This document shows positions 57 to 45,866 of a stretch of 47,480 nt of DNA, piece after piece. The stretch's first letter is position 1; every line of letters begins with the position of its first letter. This DNA is from an uncultured Candidatus Saccharibacteria bacterium. GTDB taxonomy: Bacteria; Patescibacteriota; Minisyncoccia; Portnoybacterales; UBA2143. Below the pieces are notes generated by a model. It was not told where the DNA came from. It made no database searches and saw only the letters and a list, made by a program, of their open reading frames with translations. Where the stretch lies: contig CAYQQO010000003.1 of the NCBI GenBank assembly GCA_964420115.1, forward strand, positions 1 to 47,480, read 5' to 3'. The position numbers and the translations under genes were made by a program.

Positions 57-1007
57 TTATTTTCCTATTGTCCTTCCGCAATAAGTGCATTTGCCGTTAA
101 ATATTTTAAGACGCTTGTAACAAAAAGGGCAAAGACCTAATCTTAGCAGTAACCCCTTATTAAACTTGCCAAAAATATTAATTAAAGCATTCATCTCATT
201 GTGCTCGGCAAACAATGGCGGATATACATCTCTTAATGGACGCTGACCGACAAACATCTGGAAATTCTGACGGTCGGTGTACCACTTCATAACAATAAGA
301 AGAGTAACAATTAAGAGAATATAAATAAATACATGGAAGGGAGTAAGGGTTAAAAAGTTAAAAAAGGTATGAAGAGCAATAACTGAAAACATGCCCTGCC
401 AAATAAAAGTTCTTCTGAATATAGCGTAAAAGCGCGCTAAGCCGAAATAATAACCTAAAATAGCCCCGTATAAAGAATGAGCCAGCGTGGAGACAAACAA
501 GCGGAATAAAAAAAGAACTAAAATCCCATGGATATCCGTAGGAGCGGCAATAACCTGCTTGGAGAAAAAATAAGTGTTTTCAACCAAGGCAAAACCAAGA
601 GCTAAAACAATGCCAAATTTTACTCCGTCTATAACCTGATTAAAATGCTTGTTAAACAAAAGAACCGCTCTAAAAAAGAGAAACTTAAGAACTTCTTCGG
701 GAATAGCGATAAGAAAGAAAACAATGCCAAAAATTAAAATAATTTCTTGAGTATCGGCCAATGTCCTTTCATGTTCTAAGATGGACAACAAATCTCTTGG
801 CAAAACGCCGGATAAAATCGCTTTTTCAAAAACAGCCGCGAAGACAGCGGCTATAATGCCAAAAATAAAAGCCCTCCACAAAAGACGCCACGATGTTGTG
901 TATTTTTTTGAGTAATGATACCAAAAAAAGAGCCAGAAAAAATTAGCCAACATGGCTAATCCCAAAGCGGCCAATATACTTGAATAATTTTCCGCTATAA
1001 AGCCCAT
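57..1007 (-). CDS. PrsW-family intramembrane metalloprotease with C-terminal zinc ribbon
   Basis: Multi-TM protein with PrsW motifs PEEVLK, GFALVEN, HSLY and HTFFN; ends in CPFC-x10-CTYC. Confidence 0.85.
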   Translation of the reverse strand: MGFIAENYSSILAALGLAMLANFFWLFFWYHYSKKYTTSWRLLWRAFIFGIIAAVFAAVFEKAILSGVLPRDLLSILEHERTLADTQEIILIFGIVFFLIAIPEEVLKFLFFRAVLLFNKHFNQVIDGVKFGIVLALGFALVENTYFFSKQVIAAPTDIHGILVLFLFRLFVSTLAHSLYGAILGYYFGLARFYAIFRRTFIWQGMFSVIALHTFFNFLTLTPFHVFIYILLIVTLLIVMKWYTDRQNFQMFVGQRPLRDVYPPLFAEHNEMNALINIFGKFNKGLLLRLGLCPFCYKRLKIFNGKCTYCGRTIGK

Positions 1008-1107: not shown

Positions 1108-2895
1108 TCACTCTATATCAGCCCCTGTTTGATATGCTTCAAGCTCTGCTTGGTTAACAGGAGCAACTCTCGCCCAATTATAACCCAAACGATTAAAGGC
1201 CTCGGCTGTTCTAATCCAACGTTTTTGACCCCCCTCTATTTTGTAAATCTTCTCGCCGCCATCCAAACGGATTAAATCAGAAACTTGGTAGGCATTAATT
1301 TCGGTTTGGTTAACATCAGCGATATCATCCCAGTTATTGCCATAAGAAAGAAAAACATCAGGATTTAAAACATGTCTTTTCATGCCGCTTTCTGTAATAT
1401 AGTATACCTTTTCACCGCCAGAAAGACGAATATGCTTAATTCTGGGGTAATTATCCAAAACGCTTTGAGAAACCACTTCAATATTATCCCAGTTGTAATT
1501 ATAAGAATTAAAAACATCAGGACTAGGGACCCAATGTTTTTTGCCGCCAACAATAGCATAAACTTTTTCTCCATTAGATGCCCTCATAAGAGTTATTTTC
1601 GGCGCCGGCAAGGAGGTAATTGACTCACCTTCAGGAATGTCGGCTAAAATGTTATCGCTAACTACAGTAATATTATTCCAATTGTGGCCTAACCCTTCAA
1701 AAATTTCACCTGTAGTTATCCACCTTCTTGCCGCTTCAACAATCAGATAAACCTTGTAATCAGACCCCTTAATCAGAGTGTTGTCAGGAAAAATAAGGCA
1801 TCTATCAGTCATTTCCGGCCCGTCGCCAATGCTGTTTATAATATCATCTGAAACCGTAATAATATCCTCCCACCTAAAACCGCATCCCTTAAAAATAGCC
1901 GCAGAAGTAATCCATGTTTTTTTATCATTAAATAAAATATAAACCTTTTCAGACATCCCCTTTAAAAGCGTTCCGTTAACATATTGGGTTCCTCCTCCGC
2001 TAGTTTGAGGAATAGCTGAAATAGAAGATGCCAATGAATAATTAGACGCTTCATCATAAGAAAAAAGAGCATAATAATACTTTACGCCGTTGGTCAATCC
2101 TGTATCAGTAAAACTGGCCGCATTGCCTTTCATAACTTGACCGCCATCATCAATATTAGTCGGCTCTGAGGCAGTTTTTCTAATAATTAAAACCCCCCCA
2201 AAATCACTATCAATTGGGTTAGTCCAAGAAAGAGAAATTTGCCTGTCGCCAGCTGTCACGCTCAAGTTTTTAACCATACCGGGAGGAACTAAATCAGGCG
2301 AAGATCCGGAGCCTCCGCCATTGCCGCCTCCATCACCGCCACCGCCACTGCCGTCATCTCCAGAGACAGGATTTAATGCATAACTTCCGTTTGCCACACC
2401 GCTTAAAAGATCCGAACCATCAAAAGCAACATTACTGTCTTCAGTTGAACCGGGGGTATAATCAATAGTTAAATTAGCCGTCCCGGTGGTTAACACTCTG
2501 AAGCTAATTGTCGCCAATACTCCGCTGCCGTTATAAACTTCGTCACCTTGAGTTAGTTGAACGAATTCAACCTCTCCCTGCGATGTATCAACTAAATTCG
2601 TCTGTGTCCGGCTATAAAGAGAGCCAGTGCTAATTTGCACTCCGGCTGCCCCCGCATCGTCATCTTGGGCTTCTAATAAAGAAGGATTATAATTCAAATA
2701 ACGGACGCCCACCCCATGCGTATCTGACCCCTCTGTATCTAATATTATATCAACATTAAAAAAATCCCCTACCTGATAACTGCCGGTAGAGGGCGAAAGA
2801 GAAAGGGTGGCTGCCAACACGCTTTTAACTCCACCCCCTAAAATAAAAAATAATGAAATGATTATCCCGGAGGTAATCAAAAAATATTTTTTCAT
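1108..2895 (-). CDS. Secreted surface protein: cohesin-like domain, Gly-rich linker, FN3 domain, five C-terminal repeats
   Basis: Signal peptide; ATLSLSPSTGSYQVGDFFNVDIILDT...GSGVLATISF; FN3 QISLSWTNP...YYYALFSYD; five KVY...K(R/T/H)WI-type repeats. Confidence 0.8.
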   Translation of the reverse strand: MKKYFLITSGIIISLFFILGGGVKSVLAATLSLSPSTGSYQVGDFFNVDIILDTEGSDTHGVGVRYLNYNPSLLEAQDDDAGAAGVQISTGSLYSRTQTNLVDTSQGEVEFVQLTQGDEVYNGSGVLATISFRVLTTGTANLTIDYTPGSTEDSNVAFDGSDLLSGVANGSYALNPVSGDDGSGGGGDGGGNGGGSGSSPDLVPPGMVKNLSVTAGDRQISLSWTNPIDSDFGGVLIIRKTASEPTNIDDGGQVMKGNAASFTDTGLTNGVKYYYALFSYDEASNYSLASSISAIPQTSGGGTQYVNGTLLKGMSEKVYILFNDKKTWITSAAIFKGCGFRWEDIITVSDDIINSIGDGPEMTDRCLIFPDNTLIKGSDYKVYLIVEAARRWITTGEIFEGLGHNWNNITVVSDNILADIPEGESITSLPAPKITLMRASNGEKVYAIVGGKKHWVPSPDVFNSYNYNWDNIEVVSQSVLDNYPRIKHIRLSGGEKVYYITESGMKRHVLNPDVFLSYGNNWDDIADVNQTEINAYQVSDLIRLDGGEKIYKIEGGQKRWIRTAEAFNRLGYNWARVAPVNQAELEAYQTGADIE

Positions 2896-2898
2896 TAA

Positions 2899-3507
2899 TT
2901 AAAGAATAGTTAAACTAACATTTTGCACCCTATCTAAAGTATCACCGGACTGGCTATATGAAGAAACGTTAGTATCTGTTGTATCCCCCTTTTTGAAAAC
3001 AAAACTAATTTTTGTATTTCCTGCACTTTGAGAAGAAAAAACAAGAGAACCTATTTTACCCCTTCCCTGAAAACTATTGCCCGGTGAAGTAAGAGCCGAA
3101 ATCTCTATCCGTCCTTCTTCTTTATCTGCCTTAGCGCCGATAAAATTAGAAAAAACACTCCCTTCTGTATTAAAAAATTTAGCCGTGCCGTTGAGCTGAA
3201 CAAAAGATGGATTATATTCTAAAATAAGATCAACACCATCAACTGCTTCTCCGTTTGTATCCAAATAAACATCCACAATCACATCATCTCCCACTTTATA
3301 CTCACTATCGTTAGCCGCAAGAGTTAAAACTGCTCTTTCATTAACATTATTACTGCTTGTTTTAGAATTATTATTGACTTCCTCCTTTAAAAAAAGGTCA
3401 TCTACTGACTCACCCTCAAAAACAGAAAAAGAATAATAAATAACAACCCCGGCTAATACGCCGACGAAAATAAAAGAAATTAAATAAATTAAATCGTTCT
3501 TTTTCAT
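2899..3507 (-). CDS. Membrane-anchored single cohesin-like domain protein
   Basis: N-terminal TM; YKVGDDVIVDVYLDT...VDGVDLILEYNP...GKIGSLVF. Confidence 0.75.
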   Translation of the reverse strand: MKKNDLIYLISFIFVGVLAGVVIYYSFSVFEGESVDDLFLKEEVNNNSKTSSNNVNERAVLTLAANDSEYKVGDDVIVDVYLDTNGEAVDGVDLILEYNPSFVQLNGTAKFFNTEGSVFSNFIGAKADKEEGRIEISALTSPGNSFQGRGKIGSLVFSSQSAGNTKISFVFKKGDTTDTNVSSYSQSGDTLDRVQNVSLTIL

Positions 3508-3520
3508 TTTATTTATATAT

Positions 3521-5200
3521 TTATTCGCTTGTCAAAAGCCAGTTTTTATTCAAATAGTGCCAATCTAAAGTATTGACATCGCCATCGTCATTAATATCGG
3601 CAATTGGGTCGCTTGTATGCCAGCGGTTGGCCATGATACTCCAGTCTAATTCATTGATAATCGCATCGCTCTCCTGAAGATTGCCGGCTAAAAGCTCCCC
3701 CATATCAACCTCGTCACTAGTAGGCCAGCTAGCAGTAACCCTTTTGGTTAAATAAGTTGGAGCAGCTATTCTAACATCATAGGTGTTGCTTGGCAGTATA
3801 GACATAAAGATATTATGCCTTATCGCACCCGACGAATCTGAATCAACATTTACCTCATAAATAACTGCATCAGTCCCTTGTTGCAAAAAATAAACAGTCA
3901 TTGACCTAGCATAATCTACCTTGCCTTCTAACGCTACTCTAAGCTGGAGCGCGCTTGCTGTCGCTTGAGGAGTAGCGCTACCTTGAGCGCTTCTAACAGC
4001 CGATGAATAATTAGGCGCCCCATCGTAAGCAAAGGCAGTATAATAATAAGTTGTCCCGTTAGCTAACCCGGTGTCAGTGTGACTATTTCCTGCGCCGCTA
4101 TAAACTTGGGTCCCGTCACTAGCGTTTGCTGGATAAGCGCCTATTTTTCTAATAACCATTGTCCCGACAAAATCAATATCGCCCGGATTATTCCAGGAAA
4201 GAGAAATTTGCCCGTCGCCTGCTACCGCCTGGAAAGCCGTCACATTGCTAGGAGCAGTAGTGTCAACGGTAATAGTATATCTACCGTCAGTAACTGAAGA
4301 TAAAATATCTTCATGCGCTCCGCCTGCTTTTGAAACATTGCAATCAGTGGTCGCGCCTGCTGAATAATCAAACCGGATATCAGCCCCCGCCGTTGTAGAT
4401 AAAGCTTCAAAAGTAACCGTAGCTAAAGTGCCACTGCCAGTATAAGTTGTCCCTCCGCTGGTTGTTTGAGAAAAATCTATTCTGCCGTTGGTATTATCAA
4501 TAGTATTTACATCGGTAGTAGAATACAAAGAGCCGGGGACAACACTAACGGCTGATAAAACAGCAGGGTCATAATTTAAATAATGGATATCAGCTCCGTC
4601 AGTCGCCTGACCACCAGTATTAAGATTAATAGCCACATCAAAAGTACTGCCCACCTCATAACCGCCACTAGACGGACTCAAAGCCAAAGTCGCTGTTGAC
4701 AAATCGCTTATGGTGTAACTCCCGCCGCTGGTACCATCAAGTATATCTACATTTGAATTATTTCTCACTTGACTGCTAGCGTCAAAGGCAACACTTGCTG
4801 TCCCCGCGGTATTCGCCTGAAAAGCAATCACCCCCACCAAAAGATTAGAGCCAACAACATTATTATTGGTAGCAAACGCTTCTAACCGAATTTGGTTCCC
4901 GCTAATACTATTAGTGGCTATCATACCATTCGGAGAAAAAACAGAGCTAGAAACATCCACACTTCCGCCGGGCACAGAAAGCTGGCTACCAAAATTAATA
5001 TAAAAAGCGCTGGACCAAACTATTTCTCCCCCTGTATCTAACCTAATCTCAACATTAAAACTATCTCCTGTGTTATAAGAACCAGTAGAGGGAGAGAGAG
5101 AAAGGGTAGCTGTCTGGGCTTGAGCTTTTTCTGGTGTTATCATGCCGCCTATACTAATAAAGGAAATTACTGCCAGGCTAATTAACAACTTTGTTTTCAT
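3521..5200 (-). CDS. Secreted scaffoldin-like protein: two cohesin-like domains, FN3, C-terminal dockerin-like domain
   Basis: Signal peptide; two ATL(S/A)LSPS..G.Y domains; FN3 QISLSWNNP; C-terminal GNLQESDAIINELDW...ADINDDGDVNTLDW. Confidence 0.8.
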   Translation of the reverse strand: MKTKLLISLAVISFISIGGMITPEKAQAQTATLSLSPSTGSYNTGDSFNVEIRLDTGGEIVWSSAFYINFGSQLSVPGGSVDVSSSVFSPNGMIATNSISGNQIRLEAFATNNNVVGSNLLVGVIAFQANTAGTASVAFDASSQVRNNSNVDILDGTSGGSYTISDLSTATLALSPSSGGYEVGSTFDVAINLNTGGQATDGADIHYLNYDPAVLSAVSVVPGSLYSTTDVNTIDNTNGRIDFSQTTSGGTTYTGSGTLATVTFEALSTTAGADIRFDYSAGATTDCNVSKAGGAHEDILSSVTDGRYTITVDTTAPSNVTAFQAVAGDGQISLSWNNPGDIDFVGTMVIRKIGAYPANASDGTQVYSGAGNSHTDTGLANGTTYYYTAFAYDGAPNYSSAVRSAQGSATPQATASALQLRVALEGKVDYARSMTVYFLQQGTDAVIYEVNVDSDSSGAIRHNIFMSILPSNTYDVRIAAPTYLTKRVTASWPTSDEVDMGELLAGNLQESDAIINELDWSIMANRWHTSDPIADINDDGDVNTLDWHYLNKNWLLTSE

Positions 5201-5273
5201 GTTTTTTTTTATAATTTTATAATAATATTTTTTTTATAATACTATTTTTTTGATTTTCGTATATATTTGTAGA

Positions 5274-5558
5274 TTATTTATTACGATACAGAAACACATA
5301 TTCAGCGAGATCATTAAATTCTATTTCGCCATTTTTATCAAAATCAGCTTTCAAATTTTTTTGTCCATACAGGGCGTTAAAATCATCTAAATCTCTCTGA
5401 TCAATGCGGCCATCTTGGTTAATATCTAAAGGATCATTCTCAGCGCCCAAAAATCCAGTTATAAGTTGGCTCTTGTCAGTAAAAAAGATAAAAATAGCTA
5501 AACTAATTATAATTACTACAATCAATACCACTAATATTAAACCCTTTTTCACTGACAT
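5274..5558 (-). CDS. Membrane-anchored dockerin/EF-hand-only protein
   Basis: TM helix then DINQDGRIDQRD and DFDKNGEIEFND Ca-binding loops. Confidence 0.75.
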   Translation of the reverse strand: MSVKKGLILVVLIVVIIISLAIFIFFTDKSQLITGFLGAENDPLDINQDGRIDQRDLDDFNALYGQKNLKADFDKNGEIEFNDLAEYVFLYRNK

Positions 5559-5581
5559 ATAACCACCAAACTAAAATGTTC

Positions 5582-6460
5582 TTAAGGATTAACACCCCTA
5601 TAAATGAATACATAATCAGCTAAATCATTAAAATCAACAGTTCCAGTCCCGTCAACATCAGCTCTTATATCAGTGTTACGGTAATAAAACACATAATCAG
5701 CTAAATCATTAAAATCAACAGTTCCGTCGCTATTTACATCAGGATTGTAACTAGCTGCTTCAATAGTAACAAGGACATTGCTAACTCCGCTTAAAATATC
5801 GTTTTCAACGGTTGGGTCTGTCTCAAGTTTTATTACATCGGAATCTCCAGAAGCAAATGGAATCGTTGCATCAAAAAGGAAGGTTATATTATCATTGCTT
5901 GGCGATGTCTGGGTAACGGCCTCAAAAGTAATTGCGGCAATAGTTACCGGAGTTAAATCAACATGAAGACCGGGAGTAGGTTTGGCCTGCACAATTTCTA
6001 TTTGACCGTCAGGAATTGGCGCCGAACGGTTATTTTGGGAACCATTGTAATTAACAATTTCACAAGGACCGCTGTTATAAACACAAGAATTGTCAGTCCA
6101 AAAAGGCGAATTGGTTGTATTAACGCTAACCACCTTAAAAGCCGCTGAATCGTATTCTATATAAGCGCCGACAGCCACTACATCATCTCCGCCATTTGTC
6201 CCGGAGCTCAATAAAACATTGACATTAAATTGATTGCCGACTTGGTAAGTAGCGCTGTCCGCCGAAGCTCCTTCTATTTGCAGCTCAAGTACAGCATTGT
6301 CGCCAGTACCTAAAAAGCCAGTGATAAGATCGCGCGCCTTTTCACTAGCAACGAATACAATCAAGCCCAGCAATATAAGTATGCCGACAATAATTAATAT
6401 TGCTCTTTTGTTCTTTATTTCGTTAAACACAGAATGGTTTTGCCCCTGATAATCATACAT
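5582..6460 (-). CDS. Membrane-anchored cohesin-like plus dockerin protein
   Basis: TM helix; YQVGNQFNVNVLL...IAAITFEA; duplicated DVNSDGTVDFNDLADYVF / DVDGTGTVDFNDLADYVF. Confidence 0.75.
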   Translation of the reverse strand: MYDYQGQNHSVFNEIKNKRAILIIVGILILLGLIVFVASEKARDLITGFLGTGDNAVLELQIEGASADSATYQVGNQFNVNVLLSSGTNGGDDVVAVGAYIEYDSAAFKVVSVNTTNSPFWTDNSCVYNSGPCEIVNYNGSQNNRSAPIPDGQIEIVQAKPTPGLHVDLTPVTIAAITFEAVTQTSPSNDNITFLFDATIPFASGDSDVIKLETDPTVENDILSGVSNVLVTIEAASYNPDVNSDGTVDFNDLADYVFYYRNTDIRADVDGTGTVDFNDLADYVFIYRGVNP

Positions 6461-12436: not shown

Positions 12437-13513
12437 CTATGTACCTGACGGGTACATTGGTGACACTTTAGTAGAATTATTGATATTTATCGGCGTCTCA
12501 TTATTCAATGAATCATGGGGCCTGTAAAAGTTGTATTCAATTAACCATTCTGTTAGATTTGTATTGAATTGTATAACATTAGGCGTAAAATTACCACAAT
12601 TGACAAATTCTTCTTGGATGGTTCTATTGAATCTTTCATTGACTGGATTATCCTTGGGTGTTCTGGGCCGACTATGGTATCTGCTGAGATTAAGCTTTTG
12701 ACAGGATTGTCTGAAATACTTCTCAAACTCGCTGCCATTGTCTGTTTGAATGTTTTCTATCTTGTCTTGTGTTAAATACATCAACCTATTAAGAAAGTCT
12801 GAAGCATTGTAGGAATTAGCGTGTCTGTATATTCTGGCAAAAGCCACCTTAGAAAATGAATCTATGCCAGTAAAGATATATCTCTTGAGATTGTTGTATC
12901 TTAATTCAATCGCATCTAAACAGATAAGAAATCCATTCTTGGGTTTCTTCCTTAATTCGGTGATTCTTTTCTTCTTGATGGCAGTTAAGCGTTTACGCGT
13001 GATTCTGGCTGTTTTCCTTGGATTGGGATAAAGCTTGTATTTTTCAATCACTTTCTGGACTTTCCAAGATGAGATAACCTCATTGTATTCTCGCTGATAG
13101 ATTTTAGCCAGCTTAATCTTGCTGTAACAGATATACTTCTTTCTTAATTGAACAACTCTCATTTCCTGTTCTGATGTGATTTCTCTTTGTCTTTTGTTAA
13201 TGGGAGCGCAAGATTGATTTTCTAAGGTGTAAAGATTGTTTGGATCATACTTTCGATACCACTCATAGAAACATTGGCGGGAAATGCCGAAATGACGGCA
13301 GGTTTTAGAAGCATTATTACATTTCTTGTAATAGTCCATCCATCTTAATCGTTGTTTGGCCTCCTTGGATAGATTAGCGTATTTTTTAAGGTATGAGAGC
13401 ATATGATAGAGCGGAAGCAGGTCGTTCGTAAAATGAAAGCCCTGTCCGTAGATTTGATTAATTTTTGCTCTATCATAGTAGACAACACCCTCAGAATCAA
13501 TCATTTTTACCAT
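12437..13513 (-). CDS. DDE transposase (HTH plus integrase core), IS481-like
   Basis: HTH TCRHFGISRQCFYEW; CLDAI, QTDNGSEF, PKDNPVNERFNRTIQEE, YNFYRPH. Confidence 0.92.
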   Translation of the reverse strand: MVKMIDSEGVVYYDRAKINQIYGQGFHFTNDLLPLYHMLSYLKKYANLSKEAKQRLRWMDYYKKCNNASKTCRHFGISRQCFYEWYRKYDPNNLYTLENQSCAPINKRQREITSEQEMRVVQLRKKYICYSKIKLAKIYQREYNEVISSWKVQKVIEKYKLYPNPRKTARITRKRLTAIKKKRITELRKKPKNGFLICLDAIELRYNNLKRYIFTGIDSFSKVAFARIYRHANSYNASDFLNRLMYLTQDKIENIQTDNGSEFEKYFRQSCQKLNLSRYHSRPRTPKDNPVNERFNRTIQEEFVNCGNFTPNVIQFNTNLTEWLIEYNFYRPHDSLNNETPININNSTKVSPMYPSGT

Positions 13514-13558: not shown

Positions 13559-13597
13559 TACTAATAAAAAACGCCTTATGGCGGATTTTATACTATG

Positions 13598-13668
13598 CTG
13601 GGGAGGTAGGATTCGAACCTACGATCATGGATCCAGAGTCCATTGCCTTACCGCTTGGCTACTCCCCA
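13598..13668 (-). tRNA. tRNA-Gln(CTG), no encoded CCA
   Basis: TGGGGAGTAGCCAAGCGGTAAGGC-ATGGACT CTG GATCCAT-GTAGGTTCGAATCCTAC-CTCCCCAG. Confidence 0.95.
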
Positions 13669-21093: not shown

Positions 21094-21273
21094 TTACTGC
21101 CCCCAATTACTCATCAGCAAACCCAAATCTCTGACATCAACAATGCTGTCGTTGTTTAGATTTTCGTTTTGCGCGCTGGGAGGTTCCAGCCAGCGGCTGA
21201 CCAAAAGACTGAAATCAGATGAATTAACACTGCCGTCATTGTTTAAATCTCCTAAAATGGGGCTTGATTCAAT
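21094..21273 (-). pseudogene. Orphan dockerin-coding fragment
   Basis: Reads IESSPILGDLNNDGSVNSSDFSLLVSRWLEPPSAQNENLNNDSIVDVRDLGLLMSNWGQ*; in-frame stop just upstream, no ATG start. Confidence 0.75.
21163..21237. repeat. 75-bp direct repeat, copy 1 (copy 2 at 29235-29309)
   Basis: Two mismatches in 75 bp by manual alignment. Confidence 0.9.
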
Positions 21274-21328
21274 ATTGCCTTATATTATTTATTTTATTCC
21301 TCTATATAACTATAATATGCAATATTAT

Positions 21329-29168: not shown

Positions 29169-30343
29169 TCAATCCCAACTGCTCATCATTAAACCCAAGT
29201 CCCTAATATCAACTATACCGTCGTTGTTCATATCTTCGTTTTGCGCGCTGGGAGGTTCCAGCCAACGGCTGACTAAAAGACTGAAATCAGATGAATTAAC
29301 ACTGCCGTCGCTGTCTAAATCGCCAAAGAGTTGTTGGTCTATAACAATAGAGAGAGTTTGGCTGTCTGTTTGATTGTTTGAATCTGTTACTTGAACGGTA
29401 AAGTTAAACACGCCTTCTGTCGTTGGCGTGCCGGAAATAACCCCCGTTGAATTATTTAATATTAAGCCATTAGGTAATTTGCCAGAAATAACTGACCATG
29501 TGTAAGGCGTTGCTCCCCCCGAAACAGAAAGTGCTTGAAAATAAGCAGTGTTGATTTGGCCGCCGGGGAGAGACAGTGGTTATATCGGGAATTTGTGTCC
29601 TCCCCTATCAATATCAGACCACCAATTAGTCGGCAGTTCGGTTCTAAAAATTTCCAGTGGTTGGGTCCCCAGCCAATTAGAATCAAAATAAACATATTGA
29701 CCATCTCGGCTTAACTGAGCCCTCATTTGGTTTTTATAATTAATAGGATCCCCTCTAACATGAGCGATTCTCCATGTTTTTACCATAGAAGAGTCCTTTG
29801 AGAATCGAACTGCCCATAACTCTCTTTCCAGCCAAAAGTTTGTATCAGAACCAGAACCAGCATAATTTGTATAAAAAAACCAACCATCAGTATTACGATT
29901 ATAACTAGAGCTTACATGCGTCCCCCCTTCCCAATCGCAATAAGAGTATTGTCGCTATTTGAAATAGAAAATGTCGTATATTGAATATTCATAGATCCGC
30001 TGTTTGCTTCATTCACATTGTCTGTAAACCTCCTTATTTGTATATTAAAAACAGGGTCATTATAAGCTTCCCACTTTAATGGATAATCCATCGCCGGCAT
30101 AGAGTGCATAAAACAATCGCCCGTAGCAGTCTCTGGCGGGTTTATTCCAGGCTCCCAAGTAACATAATTAAAATTTTGAGCCAAACTATTTTCTGTTTTT
30201 ATAATTGAAAAAATAAGTTCATTAAATTGAATAACTTTACCAGAGGCAACTAAGCCAGTAAAAATAATTAGCCCGAATAAAAACAAACCAAGCCAAATAC
30301 GCTTGGTTTTGTATTTCAGCCGAAAAAATAATTCAATAGACAT
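29169..30343 (-). pseudogene. Decayed surface protein: TM, partial propeller-like region, Ig-like domain, dockerin
   Basis: Collinear fragments: 29912-30343; HVSSSYNRNTDGW...WWSD; SLPGGQINTAYFQALSVSGGATPYTWSVISGKLPNGL...ISGTPT; GDLDSDGSVNSSD. Confidence 0.75.
29235..29309. repeat. 75-bp direct repeat, copy 2
   Basis: Matches 21163-21237. Confidence 0.9.
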
Positions 30344-44385: not shown

Positions 44386-45174
44386 TTAAGCGGTGATAGT
44401 CGTCTCCTTTTGTTTGCCCAGCCGCATCAGAGCGACAGCGTCGGTATGCTCGTAGACATGGAGATCCTTGCAGGAAGCGACAATAGCTCCATCAGCCACC
44501 TCAAGAGATTCAGCCATATACTCTTTCAACAGCTGAATACCGCCAAGATTGACAGGAAAGCCGCCCCATAAATCCCAAGAACGGAAATAGACCCAGAAAT
44601 GAAGCTTCCCCTCGTCAATCCACGTATCAATCCCGCGCAAACACTGCGAACTGGGACGATTTTGAGAATCTTTGTTCCAGAGGTTATCGCGAAAATACTC
44701 TTGCGTCACAACCCCTCTGCTTCTTTCGGAAATGAAAATCTGCTCACTGTAATCAACACTCCTATCATAAAAATAGAGCGTTTCAGGCCGGCCGACGGTC
44801 ATATAGCCGTGGTTGTTGCCAAATCCACCTTCTTTATAGTGCTTAATAACCCACTCCACCTGCCAATAAAGATCTTCGCCATAGGTGTAGTGTTCGCCCG
44901 GCTGTCTTACCGGAGTCATTAAATAACCCAGATACTCCTCAATATCTTCTTCAGTTGTTGGCGGCGGAATATTTGATCCTTCCGGCATCTGCGGAGCCAG
45001 GGGCCTTGTCCCGGGATATTTAATATTGATAACCAGAGGCAGAGCTGAACGGTGAATGCCTTCATAGCTCCCACTGGTGATCAAGTATCTTCTTCCCCCT
45101 GTCATCACTTTGTCGAGCGCTTGAAACCAGGCGTCTCCCAAATCAGTGGCCTCTATAAAGGTCAGTTTATTCAT
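44386..45174 (-). CDS. Thymidylate synthase-family protein (archaeal-like)
   Basis: HYTYGE, SQCLRGID, YFRSWDLWGGFPVN, LHVYE. Confidence 0.82.
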   Translation of the reverse strand: MNKLTFIEATDLGDAWFQALDKVMTGGRRYLITSGSYEGIHRSALPLVINIKYPGTRPLAPQMPEGSNIPPPTTEEDIEEYLGYLMTPVRQPGEHYTYGEDLYWQVEWVIKHYKEGGFGNNHGYMTVGRPETLYFYDRSVDYSEQIFISERSRGVVTQEYFRDNLWNKDSQNRPSSQCLRGIDTWIDEGKLHFWVYFRSWDLWGGFPVNLGGIQLLKEYMAESLEVADGAIVASCKDLHVYEHTDAVALMRLGKQKETTITA

Positions 45175-45189
45175 TCTTCTCTCCTCTTT

Positions 45190-45386
45190 TTATGGGTTGT
45201 GATAACTTCCTTTGGTCGCTATTACAGCTCCGTGAAAATCCGGTTCCTTCTCGCACCTTGAGCAATAAGGCGCTTGTTCGTAGAAACAACGCCCGCTTCC
45301 TGACATAGCACACCCGCCTGTTTTCCGAGCTCGTCTGGAGTTAAAATACTTTTTAACCCCATCGGTGTCTCAATTTGCTTAGGCAT
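45190..45386 (-). pseudogene. Probable frameshifted small CxxC protein
   Basis: SD-led MPKQIETP... frame; alternative frame reads CAMSGSGRCFYEQAPYCSRCEKEPDFHG...NP* ending before the next SD. Confidence 0.4.
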
Positions 45387-45389
45387 TTC

Positions 45390-45866
45390 TCATTCCCCCC
45401 TCTTTTTACAATTGAACTGACGGAAACCAATCCCCCTTTCGGCGAACAAGCGACGCACCTGGTGATTTTCTTCAGGGCTGTCGTATTCTTTCTGATAAAC
45501 AAACTCGCCGATGCCCAAATTAACCAGCATCTTCGCACAATCATAACAGGGAGTAAAAATACAATAGACTCTACAGCCAGACAGATTGATACCCTCGGTC
45601 GCTGCGTTAGCTATGGCGTTTGTCTCGGCATGCGCGCCTCGGCATTTGCCAGAACCAGCCGGCAGTTTTACGCCGTCTTTTTCCTTGGCGCAACCCACTT
45701 CCTGGCAATGGACCTCGCCTTTAGGCGGCCCATTGTAGCCAAAAACAATTGAACGATTGTTGTTTTTGACAAATGCGGCACCAACCTTGTAGTGTCTGCA
45801 AACTGATCTGCGAGATATTTCAGAAACAAAATTCATAAAAGTCTCATCCCAAAGCGGTCTTTCCAT
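45390..45866 (-). CDS. dCMP deaminase (ComEB/Dcd-like)
   Basis: RRSVC...VGA, GYNGPP, HAETNAI, PCYDC. Confidence 0.93.
   Translation of the reverse strand: MERPLWDETFMNFVSEISRRSVCRHYKVGAAFVKNNNRSIVFGYNGPPKGEVHCQEVGCAKEKDGVKLPAGSGKCRGAHAETNAIANAATEGINLSGCRVYCIFTPCYDCAKMLVNLGIGEFVYQKEYDSPEENHQVRRLFAERGIGFRQFNCKKRGE

Follow-up and report, generated by a model that had tools for sequence, protein, structure and literature searches.

A five-gene cohesin-dockerin cluster in a Patescibacteria genome with a putative X module-dockerin adaptor and a predicted repeat-based anchor

Introduction

Cohesins and dockerins are the plug-and-socket modules of cellulosomes. To our knowledge, surface construction among Candidate Phyla Radiation (CPR) bacteria is largely unknown. 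Here we describe a cluster of five genes (A to E) encoding such modules in an uncultured Candidatus Saccharibacteria bacterium; the window, i.e., the whole stretch of DNA that was analysed, is 47,480 nucleotides (nt) long (contig C3 of the assembly, CAYQQO010000003.1), and the assembly comprises 806,703 bases in 64 contigs and is 94% complete. Judging from the encoded sequences, the five genes probably, though by no means certainly, specify a tiered rack that sits on the surface of the cell itself and presents dockerin-tagged products of genes elsewhere in the genome. In the accessible part of PMC12484212, an adaptor scaffoldin is a single chain in which cohesins and a dockerin link tiers, and modules of this kind outside cellulosomes are known from the accessible parts of PMC8542988 and of a report on Omnitrophota (bioRxiv 2023.11.21.568195). 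We found no paper describing cohesin-dockerin scaffolds in CPR bacteria (supplements and subscription papers lay outside the search); PMC11557425 contains no CPR term, and the main text of PMC6744442 mentions neither cohesin nor dockerin. New here are the adaptor tier with its X module-dockerin dyad (XDoc) and the repeat anchor.

Genes and modules of the cluster

The cluster consists of five minus-strand open reading frames (ORFs), lettered in the order of transcription with A (6460-5582) first and E (2895-1108) last; the gaps A-B, B-C, C-D and D-E are 23, 73, 13 and 3 nt. An initial annotation, made by reading the sequence, had described this co-orientation and close spacing and had counted about five cohesin-like and three dockerin-like modules; five cohesins and three dockerin-like modules were recovered by profile search and repeat inspection. 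It had also found no catalytic domain in the five genes, in agreement with our Pfam and NCBIfam scans, which matched no catalytic family in the five proteins; the Pfam scan matched no carbohydrate-binding module (CBM) in them either. The X module of C and the nature of the repeats in E were overlooked in that first reading. The features are as follows (lengths in amino acids, aa).

5582-6460, minus strand: gene A, ORF of 292 aa
6347-6403, minus strand: gene A, N-terminal membrane anchor
5756-6295, minus strand: gene A, class-A cohesin
5600-5746, minus strand: gene A, dockerin-like FNDL module
5274-5558, minus strand: gene B, ORF of 94 aa
5481-5540, minus strand: gene B, membrane anchor
5286-5432, minus strand: gene B, dockerin-like FNDL module
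3521-5200, minus strand: gene C, ORF of 559 aa, signal peptide at the N-terminus, adaptor-scaffoldin architecture
4703-5110, minus strand: gene C, divergent cohesin 1
4265-4693, minus strand: gene C, cohesin 2, D/E class
3968-4264, minus strand: gene C, FN3
3524-3955, minus strand: gene C, XDoc dyad (closest in the PDB to the type II XDoc of CipA and ScaA)
3692-3955, minus strand: gene C, X module
3539-3688, minus strand: gene C, LDW dockerin
2899-3507, minus strand: gene D, ORF of 202 aa
3424-3492, minus strand: gene D, membrane anchor
2902-3333, minus strand: gene D, single D/E-class cohesin
1108-2895, minus strand: gene E, ORF of 595 aa, with signal peptide, D/E-class cohesin, Gly-rich linker, FN3 and five repeats in this order
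2368-2811, minus strand: gene E, D/E-class cohesin
1999-2295, minus strand: gene E, FN3
1111-1980, minus strand: gene E, five repeats of about 55 aa, no Pfam family

All five cohesins were recovered by a profile of 60 cohesin-like domains, whose PDB matches down to an E-value of 1e-4 are almost all cohesins. With Pfam PF00963, the search proposed in the initial annotation, E and C scored above the cut-off, A below it, and D gave no match. The predicted structure of D, the weakest of the cohesins, has a pLDDT of 94.8; in a comparison with 48,161 chains ranks 1-19 are all cohesins (Z 16.0-12.2; root-mean-square deviation (rmsd) 2.2 over 133), and every row listed by Foldseek is a cohesin. Type I and type II cohesins are resembled about equally. 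The model assigns D to the true cohesin fold (a nine-stranded jelly roll). D is the one cohesin modelled; A and cohesin 1 of C are assigned by profile alone.

In a tree of the cohesins, those of D and E and cohesin 2 of C fall together in one starred clade (29 of the 60 rows), the A cohesin lies in a separate clade, and cohesin 1 of C forms a long branch; the cluster holds at least two cohesin classes. Six polar residues, numbered as in D (G33, D35, S79, D120, N122 and D131), show 91-98% conservation among 66 D/E-class cohesins, a level not seen in 14 class-A cohesins. We take the strands that bear them to be the dockerin-binding face. By its architecture, D would be a membrane anchoring scaffoldin.

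The dockerin-like modules of A, B and C each comprise two repeats of a calcium loop plus a helix. The dockerin of C is well supported and has a one-residue insertion in its first loop. A weakly resolved tree of 71 rows and only 50 columns separates three classes, namely FNDL (A and B, on a long branch), LDW (C) and SSDF, in line with the distinct classes named at first reading. We found no close relative of the FNDL modules in 400 genomes of the phylum (best other E-value 1e-6). B is likely a duplicate of A minus the cohesin, because the dockerin module and the motif LITGFLG after the membrane helix are common to both. Similar motifs are seen in A orthologues, and LITGFLG could be a processing site that would release A and B.

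The XDoc dyad and its genomic neighborhood

The 90 residues N-terminal of the C dockerin are conserved together with the dockerin in relatives (675 proteins at E-values up to 0.001 among 1.84 billion). The top five PDB matches of the XDoc profile are CipA/ScaA XDoc chains (E-values 4e-7 to 2e-6), with alignments that cover both X module and dockerin. By homology, C carries an X module abutting its dockerin, as in type II XDoc of CipA/ScaA, and because these are its best matches C is built like a two-cohesin adaptor scaffoldin. The order of its parts (signal peptide, cohesin, cohesin, FN3, XDoc) is the adaptor-scaffoldin layout found in the accessible part of PMC12484212.

Gene order was surveyed in relatives, as the initial annotation had proposed for CPR genomes. 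In a set of 40 relatives, 11 other genomes had a Pfam cohesin match and 11 a Pfam dockerin match, with the two on the same contig in 6; two of these six have XDoc, a membrane cohesin and a secreted cohesin-FN3-repeat protein in the order of C, D and E. Two contig scans gave 25 loci with XDoc (21 after removing 4 repeats). In 14 of the 21 distinct loci a D-type membrane cohesin gene directly follows the XDoc gene. A further 3 (total 17) have a D/E-class cohesin no more than two genes away or on the XDoc chain itself; of the other loci, 2 break off too early and 2 lack a D/E cohesin. So as not to select for XDoc, the D/E-cohesin and XDoc profiles were run separately against 400 other genomes of the class: 14 contain a D/E-class cohesin (E < 1e-40) and 10 a full XDoc (E < 1e-30). 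All 10 are among the 14, and all 10 have a D/E-class cohesin in neighbouring genes or in the same chain (in G371 the adjacency holds for the second of two XDocs). LDW-type dockerins were found at E < 1e-16 in 13 of the 14 genomes with D/E cohesin, the 14th having a frameshifted XDoc. As far as these sequences go, the core order of XDoc, membrane cohesin and wall-anchored cohesin is conserved. From the class-matched co-occurrence and the adjacency we infer D/E-class cohesins to be the binding partners of XDoc.

An SSDF-class dockerin gene lies just upstream in two loci that contain a class-A cohesin. With protein A as query, relatives were found in 0 of 24 same-family genomes, so that the cluster is patchy and no family-wide trait. 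Word-indexed protein searches returned two matches for D and, for B, only B itself.

The repeats of protein E

The repeats of E belong to no family that our searches could name: Pfam gave only noise for 39 repeat pairs and no SLH domain in E, a PDB sequence search with the repeat profile gave nothing under an E-value of 0.2, ESM Atlas gave unnamed clusters with low recognition, and a viral fold library gave uncharacterised actinophage proteins. In the repeat model (pLDDT 87, pTM 0.54, alignment of 13 sequences), a small beta-sheet with a pair of short helices recurs in tandem. The model's 11 best PDB rows in Foldseek are EccB (E-values 3e-9 to 1e-3), and VIA rows 2, 3 and 6 are the cell-wall-binding domains of LysIME-EF1, PlyCB and Lys170 (Z 3.5-4.6). 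Repeat 1 of EccB is reported as PlyCB-like in the accessible part of PMC4769845.

Exchange with PG_binding_1 is stronger support for a wall anchor than these fold matches. In E orthologues, PG_binding_1 occupies the position of the repeats (in one orthologue the slot is filled by an FG-GAP propeller). The same exchange is seen in a family of surface proteins of about 1200 aa, present in 108 of 201 genomes of the class: in the 30 best loci its N-terminal slot holds PG_binding_1 in 25 (21 over the cut-off) and a repeat pair in 4, with 1 locus truncated, and the two never occur together. The member in this genome is as follows.

C1: 7989-11666: secreted beta-rich protein of 1226 aa of this family, no Pfam or NCBIfam match, candidate for the major surface-layer protein

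In this genome, an E-type repeat stands directly after the signal peptide of the large surface protein and is also found on two other secreted proteins; more widely, the repeat is a portable terminal module that ends many secreted CPR proteins. Among 15 genomes of known cohesin-anchor type, the surface protein was found in 9 and readable in 8; together with 3 genomes from the family survey, the anchor type of the cohesin protein equals that of the surface protein in all 11 readable genomes (repeat in 8, including one with both anchors on the cohesin protein, and PG_binding_1 in 3).

Because of the exchange with PG_binding_1 in both E orthologues and the surface protein, the repeats may be regarded as SLH-like anchors that hold on to the envelope of the cell itself, and E, whose repeats weakly resemble EccB/PlyCB-type domains and swap with PG_binding_1, is likely a wall-anchored scaffoldin. 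The initial annotation had favoured adhesion or host attachment; the exchange and the 11 matched genomes make the repeats look like an own-envelope anchor, not a host adhesin.

Cargo and further modules in the genome

By profile search the genome has 11 cohesins, and eight dockerin-bearing ORFs lie outside the cluster (two are remnants in the window). One of the eight encodes a secreted 793-aa protein similar to GH51 arabinofuranosidases (E-value 4e-11), the only recognisable enzyme among them; it has NE and TEY motifs, presumably of clan GH-A type. The description of the cluster as enzyme-free is true of the five genes and does not extend to the genome, which encodes this dockerin-tagged protein. 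Relatives have large secreted proteins that terminate in an LDW dockerin and otherwise contain LamG, beta-helix, kelch or no known domain; the cargo of relatives includes beta-helix and lectin-like proteins, and most of it is without a catalytic family. As the cargo on display is mixed, the system is not a cellulosome by content. In layout it does have a multi-cohesin scaffoldin with surface-anchor partners (C with two cohesins and a dockerin; D and E as single-cohesin anchors), and the many dockerin enzymes and CBM of a cellulosome are replaced by one GH51-like cargo and no CBM in the five genes. We note that contig C6 of one genome (G381) carries two tandem triplets of secreted proteins of 755-882 aa with near-identical C-terminal LDW dockerins and no other Pfam family.

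Further modules of the genome are as follows.

C30: 1624-6683: second cluster, with FN3-like + dockerin, cohesin, cohesin-dockerin, cohesin + two identical domains, and cohesin-FN3-repeats
C53: 1-3223: a dockerin protein and, next in line, two cohesin proteins anchored in the membrane at the C-terminus
29169-30343 (window), minus strand: broken gene in three pieces ending in an Ig domain and an SSDF-class dockerin, former cargo
21094-21279 (window), minus strand: orphan SSDF-class dockerin remnant without start codon

The C30 cluster adjoins an integrase-like gene and has similar genes in G010. The C53 type is a different recurring type, also seen in G008, G018, G022 and G032. The broken gene is of the secreted type and has one frame break and one in-frame stop; the two SSDF-class sequences, 82% identical, flank a DUF4012/glycosyltransferase/sugar-transferase block. 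An SSDF class elsewhere in the window had been noted and is indeed present, with both copies being remnants.

Other features of the window

The cluster is flanked by rpsP and by a PrsW-family gene at the contig end, which lies 56 nt beyond prsW.

57-1007, minus strand: PrsW-family intramembrane protease gene adjoining the cluster

The PrsW-family protein has a C-terminal Cys4 motif, and a second PrsW-like gene is found on contig C37. PrsW was considered as a fixed component of the cluster and rejected, since it is adjacent in the window and in 4 of the 21 distinct contig loci and in 0 of 20 class-survey regions. The contig shows no pilus locus around the cluster. An integrase-core (rve) transposase-like gene (12437-13513) adjoins tRNA-Gln (13597-13668). 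Two ORFs at 44386-45866 read like thymidylate synthase and dCMP deaminase and lie in a stretch with a GC content of 46% vs about 39%.

Discussion

In the assembly that we propose, cohesin and dockerin modules, laid out as adaptor and anchoring scaffoldins, would come together in a calcium-dependent manner. The XDoc of C would plug into D/E-class cohesins, and this docking would hold C, a secreted adaptor, at the membrane through D or at the cell wall through the E repeats. The A cohesin may, more tentatively, take SSDF-class cargo (the GH51-like protein, a large secreted protein and small cohesin-dockerin proteins), a pairing with the thin basis of the SSDF-class dockerin gene upstream of a class-A cohesin in two loci. 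The FNDL modules of A and B might bind cohesin 1 of C and give C a second membrane tether; this pairing comes by elimination, because FNDL is lineage-specific and cohesin 1 of C is equally divergent. A hierarchical surface assembly, as first suggested, is to this extent backed by fold, architecture and conserved gene order.

Several points weigh against the tiered rack. Every cohesin-dockerin pairing derives from co-occurrence, several of the XDoc loci on contigs are near-identical, and the genomes are not independent (7 of the 14 with D/E cohesin are one family). Two genomes (G182 and G103) have LDW-type dockerins, yet no cohesin by a broad profile. The only LDW dockerin found in this genome is that of C, vs three D/E cohesins, which a plain hierarchy leaves unexplained unless the 64-contig assembly misses cargo. 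The module of C is a clear dockerin; those of A and B score under the dockerin cut-offs of Pfam and NCBIfam, and the best 60 PDB matches of the A module are EF-hand proteins; for these reasons the two are called dockerin-like only. Signal anchors and cleaved signal peptides were told apart from hydropathy and motifs only. The fold matches of the E repeats are weak (Z 3.5-7.6, with a whole-model rmsd of >30 A for EccB because the repeat orientation differs), and wall binding by EccB itself is untested according to the accessible part of PMC4769845.

The sole LDW dockerin also bears on an alternative that we think unlikely but worth stating, that C is a self-assembling monomer whose XDoc binds the D/E-class cohesin of another C, with chains (or branched trees, in relatives with two such cohesins) growing from D or E into a coat or tether. 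C itself combines an XDoc with a cohesin whose class is the one found alongside XDoc. Of 400 other genomes, 8 have a chain of the same architecture, and in 6 of these 8 the chain bears two D/E-class cohesins as well as the XDoc. In 5 of the 6 loci the C-like gene comes after a small FN3-XDoc gene that is non-catalytic and might serve as a cap; in the sixth genome this gene is on a different contig. However, cohesin 2 of C and the E cohesin are only 47% identical, the C-like XDoc of six relatives falls in a starred group separate from the FN3-XDoc dockerins, and this separation fits orthogonal tiers as in the cellulosome adaptors of PMC12484212 (accessible part); further LDW cargo may also be missing from the assembly. 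The architecture of C and its relatives would allow head-to-tail or branched growth, as the initial annotation had suggested, but finer specificity within the D/E class could make the scaffold strictly tiered. With similarly low probability, C and its two-cohesin relatives would be self-polymerising scaffoldins, with one plug and one or two sockets to match it in each chain, forming calcium-dependent linear or branched polymers from membrane and wall anchors; the resulting extendable coat or tether would have its root in a new domain equivalent to SLH, the mark of a distinct Patescibacteria envelope type.

The E repeats might instead grip the wall of a host cell, so that the scaffold bridges it and the CPR membrane (A, B and D). 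CPR bacteria are described as episymbionts in the accessible literature, the nearest folds among small domains belong to phage endolysins and bind foreign walls, and the FG-GAP propeller of one orthologue sits in the repeat slot; we hold this bridge to be improbable, since the same repeat stands on the large surface protein and two other secreted proteins of this genome, and anchor type tracks the genome as a self-anchor should. Slightly less probable still is a minimal cellulosome-like machine degrading polysaccharide or host wall glycans: the GH51-like protein with its motifs, the beta-helix and lectin-like cargo of relatives and a similar published reading for Cloacimonadota (PMC8542988, accessible part) speak for it, whereas a single recognisable enzyme among eight dockerin ORFs, a scaffold with no CBM match and cargo mostly without a catalytic family speak against it. 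We give very little credence to cohesin-fold spacers and calcium-binding tags that do not bind each other. The EF-hand-like scores of the A and B modules would fit such a reading, but it leaves aside the class-matched co-occurrence and adjacency, the class-specific conserved polar residues, and the make-up of B and D, which consist of nothing beyond an anchor and one module. The tiered rack on the cell's own surface remains our preferred reading.

The locus is a small, fully expressible parts list for a surface scaffold, with five cohesins, three dockerin classes and two anchors. An unnamed repeat, which in some lineages takes the place of PG_binding_1 throughout the genome, is a testable handle on CPR envelope chemistry, and orthogonal short dockerin-cohesin pairs would be useful for designed enzyme scaffolds.

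Comparison with known systems

The closest described system is the type II XDoc-cohesin pair of Clostridium thermocellum (CipA XDoc with SdbA/ScaC-type cohesins; PDB 2b59, 5g5d and 5k39), in which the X module likewise directly precedes the dockerin. The anchoring is also alike, with a single-cohesin partner that has a cell-surface anchor, and the D model matches such cohesins. The anchors differ, being a transmembrane helix (D) or an EccB/PlyCB-like repeat or PG_binding_1 (E) here and SLH in C. thermocellum; E, without SLH, resembles an SLH-anchored scaffoldin by position. The dockerin here is about 50 aa with a short linker, there is no CBM3, and the scaffoldin has two cohesins, not many. 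The E repeats, as modelled, appear to resemble EccB repeats, PlyCB and enterococcal endolysin domains in the tandem arrangement of a small beta-sheet and two short helices, and differ in having no sequence family match and weak structural scores.

The adaptor scaffoldins of Acetivibrio cellulolyticus and Ruminococcus flavefaciens (accessible part of PMC12484212) similarly combine cohesins and a dockerin in one chain, and the ScaA XDoc chains 4u3s and 4wi0 are among the top matches of the C XDoc; unlike them, one adaptor cohesin here is of the class that co-occurs with the adaptor's own dockerin, and few enzymes are found as cargo. Outside cellulolytic bacteria the cohesin fold is likewise known from Clostridium perfringens GH84C/NagJ and Archaeoglobus fulgidus (2vo8, 2w1n and 2xdh match the D model), and a scaffold deduced from the genome of an uncultured phylum is reported for Ca. 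Stygibacter in the accessible part of PMC8542988. The present locus differs from these non-cellulosomal systems in that its operon is dedicated and non-catalytic, has modules of three classes and anchors of two kinds, and belongs to a genome of 807 kb.

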